Positions 4,845 through 7,155 of a stretch of 35,836 bases of DNA are shown here, in pieces. How positions within the stretch are numbered: the stretch's first letter is position 1; each line of letters opens with the position of its first letter. Made by a program: the position numbers and the translations under genes. The notes beneath the pieces were generated by a model. The model searched no databases. It saw only the letters and a program-made list of their open reading frames with translations, and was not told the origin of the DNA. The DNA comes from a virus. Its lineage: Duplodnaviria; Heunggongvirae; Uroviricota; Caudoviricetes. Location of the stretch: IMG/VR virus record IMGVR_UViG_2645727821_000018; one strand, given 5' to 3'.

Positions 4845-5207
4845 TTAATGACCTGCTGCGCGGAGTTTTCCGTCAGGTTCACCGGCAAGAGTCAGTAATT
4901 GTCCCTGGTCTTCCTGCAGAATAGTCAGGCGACCACCGCGATTGACATACATCGGCGTTTCGGTGGTGTCTTCTTCGGAAATTTTCCCGCGGTTAGTCGG
5001 ACGAACATATGAGAGTTTGTGTTTTATTTTCACACGGTTCTCATCAAACGGTTCGATTTCCAGGTTGAGCGAGACCTTACCTTTGGTTTTCGTGTTCATC
5101 ACACCGGAAGCGACTTCACTGAGAACTGCGCCGATTTTGGTTTCAAATACGCCGCCGTCCAGCTCCCCGATAAATTCCTGCACGTTGGTACTGCGTTCGC
5201 TAGCCAT
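4845..5207 (-). CDS. Prophage protein, YfdP-like (about 120 aa)
   Basis: The ORF track gives 226 aa, but the ATG at 5205-5207 has a GAGGAG SD 8 nt upstream and the upstream extension reads like non-coding GC-rich sequence, so the short form is preferred. Confidence 0.65.
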   Translation of the reverse strand: MASERSTNVQEFIGELDGGVFETKIGAVLSEVASGVMNTKTKGKVSLNLEIEPFDENRVKIKHKLSYVRPTNRGKISEEDTTETPMYVNRGGRLTILQEDQGQLLTLAGEPDGKLRAAGH

Positions 5208-5257
5208 TTTGCTGCTCCTCATCATATCGACCCTGCAAGGTCGGTTGGTTTCTCCAC

Positions 5258-5390
5258 AAAACAGAGAAGAACACCTGCGGTGGCAGCCGCCCGGGTGGAT
5301 TGGGTTATGAGCCCGTCGTCCGGTGATGCTCTTCTCTGTTTTGTAAAAAGAGCGGTACCAGCCGGAAGCAAGGGTACAAGCTGGTACCGC
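5258..5390. promoter_or_regulatory. Dyad-symmetry cluster in a 470-bp untranslated region; candidate leftward operator/promoter and structured leader
   Basis: 15-bp inverted repeat arms (about 5258-5272 and 5329-5343, 14/15 complementary) around a 56-bp GC-rich spacer. An 11-bp perfect inverted repeat GCGGTACCAGC / GCTGGTACCGC (5352-5362 and 5380-5390). GTAC-core motifs recur as in the cI-cro intergenic region. Confidence 0.4.
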
Positions 5391-5675
5391 CAGGACTACA
5401 CACAGCATAAAGTTGTGGTGCCGGGTGCCTCCCGGTGCCTGGCGAAGGTTGCACACCAGGCGGGTGGGTATCCACAGAAGGTCGACTGTCAGCCTCAACC
5501 TTAACCCGCGTGCGCTGAGCCGCATTCACCACAACGCTAAGGATTCTCTCTGGTTGAAAATACTTAGCTGTTATGTGCCTGCTTTTAGCCACATCAGGCG
5601 AGGTGGGCCTGGTTATTCCCCAACAACAAGGATTCGGCTAATCTGGATGACTCTGTTCTTAGAGGGGATAATTAA

Positions 5676-6188
5676 ATGGGAGCGATTTATGTTAAACGTT
5701 TGATTCTGTCGGTAGCACTGATAATACCGATAGCATCCAATGCTTCTGATGCTTTGAACCAGCCGAGCAGTAGTCTAAATGATGGTGTTGAGACTTTTTT
5801 TATTTCCTGCTTTGATATGCCTCAGGAAACAACTACTGATATGGACGCTTGTCAGAGAGTTCAGTTAGCTCAGGTTAGTTGGGTTAAGAATAAGTATTCG
5901 GTGGCCGCCCTGAATCGTTTGAAACAAGACAACAAGGATGATCCACAGCGTCTGCAGGAATTAACTGCTTCTTTTAACGCGGAAAGTGAAGCTTGGACAG
6001 AATTAATTGAGAAAGCGTCAAAGTCCGTCCAGGTTGATTATGCAGGAGGAACTATAGCTGGCACTGCAGTTGCATCACGTCAAATTGGTCTTCTGGAATT
6101 ACAATCCCACGATATCTGGGAGCACTGGCTACGATTCGAGGACTCAACTCCTCCTCTTTTGCCAGAACCAAAGTTCAAATCTGAGTAA
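5676..6188 (+). CDS. Secreted or periplasmic accessory protein with N-terminal signal peptide (possibly DUF1311 / LprI-like fold)
   Basis: SD AGAGGGG 8 nt upstream of the ATG. N-terminus LILSVALIIPIASNASDA looks like a Sec signal peptide. Followed by an intrinsic terminator. Convergent with the repressor gene. Confidence 0.6.
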   Translation: MGAIYVKRLILSVALIIPIASNASDALNQPSSSLNDGVETFFISCFDMPQETTTDMDACQRVQLAQVSWVKNKYSVAALNRLKQDNKDDPQRLQELTASFNAESEAWTELIEKASKSVQVDYAGGTIAGTAVASRQIGLLELQSHDIWEHWLRFEDSTPPLLPEPKFKSE

Positions 6189-6215
6189 TAAGTCATCCAG
6201 ATTGTTAAAGAGCGA

Positions 6216-6239
6216 AGCGTCCTATAGGGCGCTTTTTTG
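6216..6239 (+). terminator. Rho-independent terminator downstream of the exported-protein gene
   Basis: Stem AGCGUCC / GGGCGCU with loop UAUA, followed by a run of six T (6234-6239). Confidence 0.6.
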
Positions 6240-6353
6240 TTGCTAACGAATCATCCTGGACTTCATATGCCCCAGGCGGCTACTTCGTGGGCGTCCTGCC
6301 TGTTTGTTGTTTCTCTTGGGTACATTATGTATCTCAAAGGTACATTGTCAAGT

Positions 6354-6379
6354 ATAAAAAAACCTGCCGAAGCAGGTTC
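6354..6379 (-). terminator. Rho-independent terminator downstream of the repressor gene (minus strand)
   Basis: On the minus strand: hairpin AACCTGC-TTCG-GCAGGTT followed by a run of eight T (plus-strand A-run 6355-6362), immediately 3' of the cI stop. Confidence 0.55.
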
Positions 6380-6390
6380 ATAAACATTGA

Positions 6391-7065
6391 TTAGGCTTTG
6401 ATTTTGTATCTTCTTGGTTTTCCTGAGAAAATCACAGTACCAATTATAGAGCAATTACCGTTGATCTTAATGTAAGGCTCAGGCCAGTTTGGGTTTAACG
6501 CTTTGAGATAACGCTGTGTCCCATCTTCTATCAACCTTTTGAAGGTGGTTTCACCTGTATCGTGCATCAATGCAATAACGTCGTCACCGTGGCAGGCAGG
6601 TACTTCAGGATCGACAAAAATCATGTCTCCCGGGCGGTACTCATCAATCATTGAATCACCTATCACCCGCAAGATATAAGTCATTTCCCCACAGGGTACA
6701 GGGCAGGGATACGTTTCTGCTGTGCTCAAATCAACCTCAGAATATCCAACTTCTTTCCATGCTCCGGCCTGTACCCATGATATGACAGGGACTAATGTGA
6801 TTTGTTTATTAGTGATTGAAACATCAGGTTTTTTTGTGATGTTCGTTGTCTGGTGTTCTTGATCGAGCCATCCGACAGGCAGGTCGAAACATTTTTCGAT
6901 GTGTCGTGCCATGCTGTCACCGATATTTTTAGTAGCACCATCTCCCATAAACCTGCTGGTCTGGGTTGGCTCGCGATCAATCATAGTGGCAAAGGAAGAA
7001 TTCCCGCCAACACCATCTCTCAGTTTTCTGGCGTTAGACCGCCGGATGTCATGGATTGTTTTCAT
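6391..7065 (-). CDS. cI: CI-type prophage repressor (N-terminal HTH, C-terminal S24 LexA-like autopeptidase)
   Basis: 224 aa; C-terminal GDSM motif (RVIGDSM) typical of S24 peptidase and LexA-like repressors; divergent from a cro-like gene across an operator-bearing intergenic region. Confidence 0.9.
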   Translation of the reverse strand: MKTIHDIRRSNARKLRDGVGGNSSFATMIDREPTQTSRFMGDGATKNIGDSMARHIEKCFDLPVGWLDQEHQTTNITKKPDVSITNKQITLVPVISWVQAGAWKEVGYSEVDLSTAETYPCPVPCGEMTYILRVIGDSMIDEYRPGDMIFVDPEVPACHGDDVIALMHDTGETTFKRLIEDGTQRYLKALNPNWPEPYIKINGNCSIIGTVIFSGKPRRYKIKA

Positions 7066-7078
7066 AACGAAATTAAAA

Positions 7079-7148
7079 CCCTTGTACCGTTAAGGTACAA
7101 GTATCTTGAAGGTTCATTTCAATCATGTAATATGTACACCGGAGGTAC
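7079..7148. promoter_or_regulatory. Immunity-region operator/promoter (OR/PR-like) between cI and cro
   Basis: Perfect inverted repeat CTTGTACC-gttaa-GGTACAAG (7079-7099). Candidate -35 TTGAAG (7104-7109) and -10 TAATAT (7126-7131) with a 16-nt spacer. A second GTACA-cc-gg-ag-GTACA element (7132-7148) overlaps the cro SD. Confidence 0.5.
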
Positions 7149-7155
7149 ACATTGT

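Follow-up and report, generated by a model that had tools for sequence, protein, structure and literature searches.

An STnc100/PasD-type RNA, its terminator and a conserved hairpin element in the probable left-operon leader of a prophage type widespread in Escherichia coli

The interval at positions 5208-5675 of the viral record IMGVR_UViG_2645727821_000018 (IMG/VR; 35,836 nucleotides, the whole of which is referred to here as the window) is a real, non-coding and heavily structured region, ordinary in kind, that combines a member of a prophage small RNA (sRNA) family with a terminator and an element of a 5′ untranslated region (UTR). It is probably the folded leader of a leftward early operon, built from an STnc100/PasD-type RNA, the terminator at its 3′ end, and an element that we refer to as I1, and serving both as the source of an operon-derived sRNA and as a transcriptional barrier. 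The close relatives of the window are the Shigella phages SfV, SfII and SfIV, and a 571-bp query spanning the region (5150-5720) is present as an identical copy in prophages of E. coli ATCC 11775, UTI89, APEC O1 and many other strains. Among 5,426 complete genomes, 2,888 match some part of this query and 1,156 carry 80% or more of it.

On the minus strand, 5208-5600 folds to -168.5 kcal/mol, compared with -133.1 +/- 6.9 kcal/mol for dinucleotide shuffles (z -5.1; 0 of 100 shuffles as good), whereas the plus-strand fold of the region reaches a z of only -2.7; the folds support genuine structure on the minus strand. An initial annotation, made without database searches, had proposed a long structured leader or a structured non-coding RNA here, and for the leftward strand this is borne out by the Rfam match and the covariation described below. 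The repeats that it reported are also real. Its 15-bp inverted repeat forms the core of the longer, 25-nt arms of I1 (5256-5280 / 5320-5344), its perfect 11-bp repeat was recovered as GCGGTACCAGC / GCTGGTACCGC (5352-5362 / 5380-5390), and its 'further GC hairpins' are enclosed by a third repeat pair that it did not list, GTTGTGGTG / CACCACAAC (5412-5420 / 5527-5535). Compensatory changes, which it had suggested looking for in homologues, occur in helices P1, P2 and P4 of the core, in a pseudoknot, and in the stem of I1.

The region matches the Rfam family STnc100 (RF02076) over 5343-5565 of the minus strand, with 45.4 bits and an E-value of 3.3e-8 across the full model (1-206); the covariance-model scan that had been advised yields a full-length match that lies below the gathering threshold. 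For comparison, the same model gives 37.7 bits for PasD1 and 52.6 bits for the copy in phage HK639. At gathering thresholds Rfam has no match anywhere in the window, and STnc100 surfaces only in an E-value scan, which returned no other meaningful match between 4800 and 6400. A single copy of the 22-mer CACCGGGAGGCACCCGGCACCA is present in the window; it is also found in more than 120 IMG/VR viral contigs, which form 30-31 clusters below 80-85% identity that we use as family representatives. The seed sets for this motif and for the two others described below were gathered by exact-match words and are hence biased, and the invariance of a word says nothing about conservation; P5 and part of P1 are held invariant through collection by the 22-mer and carry no information.

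The core aligns with 31 diverged family members and has the family's helix order of P1, P2, P4, P5 and terminator. Among the 32 representatives, 92% of the cells in P1 and P2 are paired and eight pairs are changed on both sides, a result reached by 0 of 500 shuffles. The P2 helix of the window is GCGGC/GCaCGC, where most members have CCCCC/GGaGGG. The sequence of P4 differs in nearly every cluster with its pairing always kept, and its loop is complementary to the linker that follows P2, predicting a pseudoknot: AAGGUUG/CAACCUU in the window, AAGGCUG/CAGCCUU in phiES15, and CCAGUC/GACUGG, CCAGAC/GUCUGG, GCCAGGUC/GACCUGGC, AUCAGC/GCUGAU and ACUGGAU/AUCCAGU elsewhere. Both P4 and the pseudoknot were scored by own-versus-cross complementarity, the MAFFT alignment being too poor in P3 and P4 for column-wise counting, and a linker/P4-loop complementarity of at least 6 bp is found in 78% of own pairs as against 25% of cross pairs. 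This pairing is absent from the structure line printed for the Rfam STnc100 model, and its many independent compensatory changes argue for a separate function of the conserved 5′ domain. Immediately upstream of the core is an accessory hairpin, at the site of which ST64B has a different sequence (UAAGAG/CUCUUA, read directly) that can also form a hairpin.

Two STnc100-type cores are present in each of the IMG/VR contigs L014, L021, L038, L052, L061, L072 and L077. They are spaced 484 nt apart in L021, L038, L052 and L072, and by 267, 922 or ~4,000 nt in the others, and the paired cores of one contig belong to different sequence clusters.

The core is followed by a single-stranded linker and a Rho-independent terminator. 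The stem of the latter is the perfect 11-bp repeat, which extends to 13 bp in the fold (dG -23.7 kcal/mol) and has the U-tract CUCUUUUU directly after it; the 17-nt loop exceeds the limit of 8 nt in a simple terminator scan, which missed the hairpin only for that reason. It begins 66 nt beyond the end of the 22-nt core motif in the window, and a terminator is present in 27 of 31 family representatives, mostly 32-66 nt after the core. In ST64B the stem has an entirely different sequence and the same structure. In the window, ST64B, phiES15 and the loci L016 and L064 the terminator is directly preceded, on its 5′ side, by the motif UUGCUGUGU, and a search for a phage-internal target of this candidate seed returned only the self match within the window. 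RNAs stopping at the terminator would be built like an Hfq-type sRNA: a 5′ domain that is structured, then a seed just ahead of the terminator hairpin, and a U-tail.

Transcripts passing the terminator would run into I1, whose 25-nt arms are 84% complementary at the DNA level. Its apical 24-mer, GGGCTCATWACCCAATCCACCCGG, is present in more than 120 viral contigs, and in about 50 distinct listed loci I1 is nearly always located after a terminator or T-tract and 25-45 nt upstream of the first early-left gene, whichever gene that may be. In the outer 20 pairs, pairing reaches 94% and five pairs are altered on both sides (one position, for example, has G-C in 15 and C-G in 12), a score attained by 0 of 500 shuffles. 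The minus strand is the one that folds, because conserved U.G pairs would be A.C on the other strand. Downstream of I1, all loci examined have GGAGAAA and then a small hairpin whose sequence varies, after which come a Shine-Dalgarno sequence and the first gene; for yfdP, the start at 5207 with GAGGAG upstream, as proposed initially, agrees with RefSeq. I1 has no Rfam match in the E-value scan.

The only strong leftward sigma-70 promoter is a PL-like site directly after the terminator of the repressor gene (6360-6379), and an operator (6328-6344) is located within its spacer. About a dozen nucleotides after the predicted PL start is a third conserved motif, the PL-leader element (PLE), which is conserved in SfV and ST64B although the operators differ. 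Its 22-mer, GGACGCCCACGAAGTAGCCGCC, is found in more than 120 viral contigs, in every case a short distance downstream of a promoter and with many operator types, and in 49 cultured phages of Escherichia, Salmonella, Shigella, Klebsiella, Yersinia, Pectobacterium and Pantoea, mostly without an annotated feature at the match. The two PLE helices are 94.5% paired, both sides have changed in 8 of 11 pairs (0 of 500 shuffles), and the element carries an invariant GGAUGA. A covariance model (R1) scores 90 bits in the window with one copy per locus, and detects no PR-side copy, which would be the analogue of putR, in the window or in 60 related loci; PLE likewise has no match in the Rfam E-value scan. 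Of 112 PLE loci, 48 contain I1, and in about half a strong terminator on the same strand follows within 2 kb.

The copies of the core fall into two kinds of setting. CCCCC-type members are independent genes: a TTGAC(A/T)-17-TAAATT-like sigma-70 promoter ends ~7 nt before helix P1, and the mapped 5′ end of PasD1 is the first nucleotide of that helix. At several canonical loci an opposite-strand terminator hairpin follows directly, suggesting, in our own reading, a convergent neighbour. STnc100 and its relative PasD are placed in the literature in lambdoid prophages near Q, stx and lysis genes, and PasD is an Hfq-dependent sRNA seen by Northern blot, with partners identified by RIL-seq (Pearl Mizrahi et al. 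2021; Zhu, Shabalina and Storz 2026 preprint). PasD1, from enteropathogenic E. coli (EPEC) E2348/69, is 173 nt long, has the seed UGUGAG just 5′ of its terminator, and is dependent on Hfq for stability.

The GCGGC-type subfamily comprises the copies in the window, SfV, ST64B, 118970_sal3, phiES15, phage P1 and three metagenomic contigs. These have no promoter at helix P1 and carry in its place the conserved, transcribed-looking flank GAAUGCUCUyyCGUUG; they lie in sense orientation inside repressor-controlled early operons, and all are under the Rfam threshold (33-45 bits). In SfV, ST64B, 118970_sal3 and phiES15 the copy is downstream of cI, and in the window it is between the repressor gene and yfdP, with no sigma-70 promoter of its own found by a promoter scan. 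In phage P1 (AF234172; locus L003 2504-2623, record positions 70080-70199) an unannotated STnc100-like core of 33.4 bits, with the covarying pseudoknot UGGUUAU/AUAACCA, is located between upl and tciA in the C1-controlled ban operon.

Expression of such a leader can be followed in ST64B prophages of Salmonella Typhimurium, where the non-coding RNA STnc1310 and two genes downstream of cI rise together under peroxide or nitric-oxide shock, a response read by its authors as prophage induction (PMC7067206). Along the ST64B operon the values, in transcripts per million, fall from ~2300 to 1200 to 200. By our own coordinate conversion the 74-nt STnc1310 is placed between PLE and the STnc100-like core, and its end coincides with an additional terminator that ST64B has in this interval, CUGGCGG...CCGCCAG followed by UUUUU (L004 ~2874-2950). 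STnc1310 looks like the 3′ end of a first terminated PL leader transcript, and the expression in ST64B agrees with a leftward transcript that comes from the repressor side and is attenuated stepwise, with antitermination neither proved nor excluded.

From these observations we propose that the region is the promoter-distal part of a leader whose transcription runs leftward from the PL-like promoter at 6351-6324, which is under repressor control. Its first module – the 5′ hairpin, the pseudoknot-locked junction, the single-stranded UGCUGUGUGUAG and the strong intrinsic terminator – would release an STnc100-like RNA that most likely acts in trans by base pairing, as suggested by its homology with PasD, which is experimentally Hfq-dependent and has its seed at the same position. 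As the copy has no promoter of its own, the RNA would be produced chiefly upon induction, when PL fires, making it an operon-derived sRNA. The same terminator would constitute the second module, a barrier before yfdP-yfdQ-yfdR, such that these genes are reached only by read-through, due either to leakage or to antitermination. Read-through transcripts would carry the third module, I1, ~45 nt ahead of the yfdP start, where it may serve as a site of processing or of translational control, in analogy with the RNase III site of the lambda N leader.

Several points weigh against this proposal. The STnc100 score is 1.6 bits under the curated gathering threshold of 47. The U-tail has five consecutive U residues, fewer than expected for a strong Hfq-binding tail. 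In the Salmonella transcriptome annotation that we retrieved, the ST64B leader has an entry for STnc1310, and none was found for a separate sRNA at the STnc100-like core. In phage P1 the homologue lacks a terminator, and the tciA ribosome-binding site comes directly after it, which fits a role in cis better than that of an sRNA. The intricate, conserved, pseudoknotted junction exceeds the needs of a base-pairing sRNA, which this reading does not account for, and RNase III cleavage of I1 is pure analogy.

A broader model, which we put forward tentatively and regard as doubtful, is that the leader of these SfV/ST64B-type phages without N contains an unannotated RNA system of three parts. In it PLE would be a cis-acting processive antiterminator of a new, put-like class, unrelated in sequence to that of HK022, licensing RNA polymerase to pass the terminator, while the STnc100-type domain would be an induction-specific sRNA and I1 a processing or translation switch in the same leader. 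If true, the STnc100/PasD core would need re-reading as more than a scaffold for a base-pairing sRNA.

That the core is instead a cis-regulatory leader of the riboswitch or attenuator type seems unlikely to us. Its junction would sense a ligand, a protein or the state of RNA polymerase, and would set read-through at the terminator or, in phage P1, access to the ribosome-binding site, the 'sRNA' being merely the terminated leader. This would suit the complexity and conservation of the junction and pseudoknot, the absence of promoters from the early-operon subfamily with its invariable sense orientation within the operon, and an expression platform that varies, with a terminator in the window, ST64B and phiES15 and none in phage P1. 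In phage P1, AACCUUAUU can by eye pair with AAUGAGGUU, which would sequester the tciA Shine-Dalgarno sequence right after helix P1, and in the window the 5′ arm of P4 has a duplicate, CCUGGCG, at the base of the terminator that could, by inspection, compete for the 3′ arm of P4. This possible competing pairing is, however, not conserved in ST64B or phiES15, and the minimum free energy (MFE) fold forms core and terminator together. Moreover, canonical members stand alone, with a promoter at helix P1 and a terminator, PasD is an abundant Hfq-dependent RNA with partners in trans, and the genes downstream (yfdP, kil, tciA) are mutually unrelated, unlike those behind a metabolite riboswitch.

The initial annotation had also raised RNA-based antitermination by the region itself; as with the HK022 put RNAs, RNA polymerase would then read through the left-operon terminators without N. 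EAR-type and put-type antiterminator RNAs are structured, and the EAR type has a pseudoknot; the operon contains terminators, and the observation that no N-like gene is present holds, since there is no such open reading frame (ORF) on the leftward strand between PL and yfdP. The region and the HK022/HK639 put elements are alike in being early-operon leader RNAs of phages without N protein. However, put is a ~70-nt two-stem RNA right after its promoter, whereas the element here starts ~750 nt from PL (-10 at 6324 versus 5568), away from the transcript start, and is immediately followed by an efficient-looking terminator of its own, so that the region ends in a terminator rather than suppressing one. 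Comparison with HK022 putL/putR and HK639 putL gave only chance words by blastn-short and no hit with an nhmmer profile of the three put RNAs anywhere in the window, and the STnc100 model has no hit in the HK022 put region. Canonical STnc100 members are independent genes, and HK639, whose record itself annotates an HK022-type putL, has a canonical STnc100 elsewhere in its genome. Antitermination by the region is very improbable, and PLE is, by its placement, the better candidate for such a role. The put RNAs of HK022 and HK639 were considered as members of the PLE family and rejected, with neither detected by model R1; PLE and HK022 put occupy the same position after the promoter and share no more than CGAAC.GGC and GGAUGA, too little for homology.

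HK639 is also of interest for its Q-holin interval (L235 44281-44985), which contains a tRNA, an isrJ-like match (34.6 bits, sub-threshold) and the canonical STnc100 (52.6 bits), each with a terminator. With the put RNA in the left operon of the same phage, put and STnc100 coexist there as separate elements.

The primary reading of the initial annotation, that the region is the leftward operator and promoter (oL/PL) with GTAC-core repressor sites, is already largely refuted, and we give it scarcely any credence. The GTAC motifs that prompted it are present – GGTACC twice and GGTACAAG once within 5352-5390, the latter corresponding by inspection to one half-site of the oR operator – but none of them conforms to the consensus of the operators. 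This consensus, TGTAC-N7-GTACA, was derived from the two palindromes between the repressor and cro genes, and with at most one mismatch it occurs in the window only at 6328-6344, 7083-7099 and 7133-7149. An operator scan of 5208-5675 gave no full match, and a promoter scan gave nothing but a 9/12 sigma-70-like site at the far edge (5695..5668), whereas a strong promoter with an embedded operator is already provided next to the repressor gene, at 6324-6351. The GGTACC-containing 11-bp repeat is an intrinsic terminator stem and not an operator: phage mEp460, with an annotated repressor like that of ST64B and unlike that of the window phage, shares the hairpin at ~97% identity, and ST64B replaces the sequence while keeping a hairpin and U-tract.

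Finally, that the region codes for protein is scarcely conceivable: PGAP places a pseudogene at 5222-5532 and several related phage records have hypothetical proteins here, but these are very likely annotation artefacts, as 0 of 4 ORF translations across the region match Pfam, no frame anchored on the conserved core motif is open in more than 13 of 32 diverged homologues (and that over only ~40 codons), length differences among those homologues have no period of three, and the substitutions are compensatory for RNA helices, all in keeping with the earlier view that no credible ORF is present.

Table 1. Features of the leftward early operon leader and its surroundings in the window
Feature	Position (strand)	Basis or remark
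yfdR, yfdQ, yfdP	leftward; yfdP start 5207	RefSeq
Proximal yfdP 5′ UTR: conserved GUGGAGAAACC, hairpin 5226-5245, Shine-Dalgarno GAGGAG 5215-5220	5208-5255 (-)	folds, RefSeq start
'Frameshifted hypothetical protein'	5222-5532 (-)	RefSeq/PGAP pseudogene over the RNA modules
I1 element: 20-25-bp stem closing a conserved apical domain (GGGCUCAUAACCCAAUCCACCCGG and a variable hairpin)	5256-5344 (-)	inverted repeat, covariation
Rho-independent terminator GGCGGUACCAGC...GCUGGUACCGC + UCUUUUU	5343-5392 (-)	3′ end of STnc100-like RNA
Single-stranded linker with conserved UGCUGUGUGUAG, candidate seed	5393-5411 (-)	position, conservation
STnc100/PasD-type core, multi-helix junction of ~125 nt	5412-5535 (-)	Rfam match, covariation
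Closing helix P1	5527-5535 / 5412-5420 (-)	followed by hairpins P2 to P5
Predicted pseudoknot: linker AAGGUUG x P4 loop CAACCUU	within 5412-5535 (-)	own-versus-cross complementarity
5′ accessory hairpin GCUAAG...CUUAGC	5536-5568 (-)	directly upstream of core; in MFE and centroid folds
Spacer between RNA modules and divergent plus-strand moron gene	5569-5675	no operator, no convincing promoter found
Plus-strand moron gene	5676-6188 (+)	RefSeq; terminator 6214-6235
PLE, conserved 73-nt RNA at 5′ end of leftward transcript	6239-6311 (-)	22-mer, covariation, model R1
PL-like early-left promoter	6351..6324 (-)	TTGACA-16-CATAAT, 11/12; only strong leftward sigma-70 promoter
LexA-family repressor gene (ymfK)	6391-7065	RefSeq
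cro-like gene	rightward, beyond repressor gene	RefSeq

Homology with SfV stops at ~5606, within the spacer. The moron gene to its right encodes a 170-aa product with a signal-peptide-like N terminus and a weak match, under the cut-off, to the lysozyme inhibitor LprI (17.3 bits). It is located between PL and the structured leader, such that transcription from PL must cross it antisense, and its slot is variable: SfV has an unrelated sense-strand ORF (orf33), and 118970_sal3 and mEp460 have other opposite-strand ORFs. A scan for tRNA and tmRNA genes found none. On its rightward side, the ST64B-type immunity region (ST64B, L004 409-496 and 521-597; 118970_sal3, L006 48-124) contains a C4 antisense RNA scoring 79.7 bits and isrK at 64-67 bits. 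Both exceed the Rfam thresholds, and the window is without either.

For a prophage type widespread in E. coli these results correct the map of the left side of the immunity region, in that PL and oL adjoin the repressor gene and the 470-bp 'gap' is RNA and not a pseudogene. I1 and PLE represent two further widespread RNA motifs without an Rfam match in our search, and together with the terminators they provide a testable model of left-operon control in lambdoid phages lacking N.

Among known systems, the nearest is STnc100 itself, a prophage sRNA of gammaproteobacteria, with which the window copy shares a full-length alignment, the identical 22-nt core CACCGGGAGGCACCCGGCACCA, and a common arrangement in which the closing helix is followed by P2 (loop U-N-N-G-C), a variable hairpin, P4, P5, the linker and the terminator. 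The window copy differs in the score just short of the threshold, in its P2 stem, and in having an extra 5′ hairpin and a conserved 5′ flank and lacking a promoter of its own. Its place is the early-left (PL) operon, whereas canonical STnc100 is between Q/stx and the lysis genes. PasD1 is, like the window copy, a sub-threshold relative of STnc100 with a seed just 5′ of its terminator, and by inspection the same linker/P4-loop pseudoknot (AUGAUC/GAUCAU). Unlike the window copy, PasD has its own promoter and starts at helix P1, has lost a clean P5, and adjoins holin and lysozyme genes; the seeds differ (UGUGAG versus UGCUGUGUGUAG), and Hfq dependence and targets have been shown for PasD only. 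PasB was also considered as a possible part of the window and rejected, its published probe sequence being absent.

DicF of the Qin prophage is similar in being a prophage sRNA located in a repressor-controlled early operon, released from its transcript, and having a terminator-type 3′ end, and in the phage P1 ban operon a dicF-like region and an STnc100-like core are found together. There is no sequence relation (the Rfam DicF model gives only 15.9 bits, E 2.6, on the window's terminator), and DicF is a short RNA with an unstructured seed and without a multi-helix 5′ domain, unlike the window copy. By position, the long-established PL leader of phage lambda, with tL1 and the RNase III site in the N leader, is also comparable, providing an early terminator barrier and a long hairpin before the ribosome-binding site of the first gene. 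The window differs from lambda in having no nut site and no N gene, the apical domain of I1 is not known from lambda, and the RNase III parallel would hold by analogy. The STnc100/PasD family and its Hfq-sRNA behaviour are already known; new are the promoter-less early-operon subfamily, the pseudoknot, and the I1 motif without an Rfam match, extending the family to SfV-, ST64B-, phiES15- and P1-like phages whose copies were missed by the Rfam threshold.

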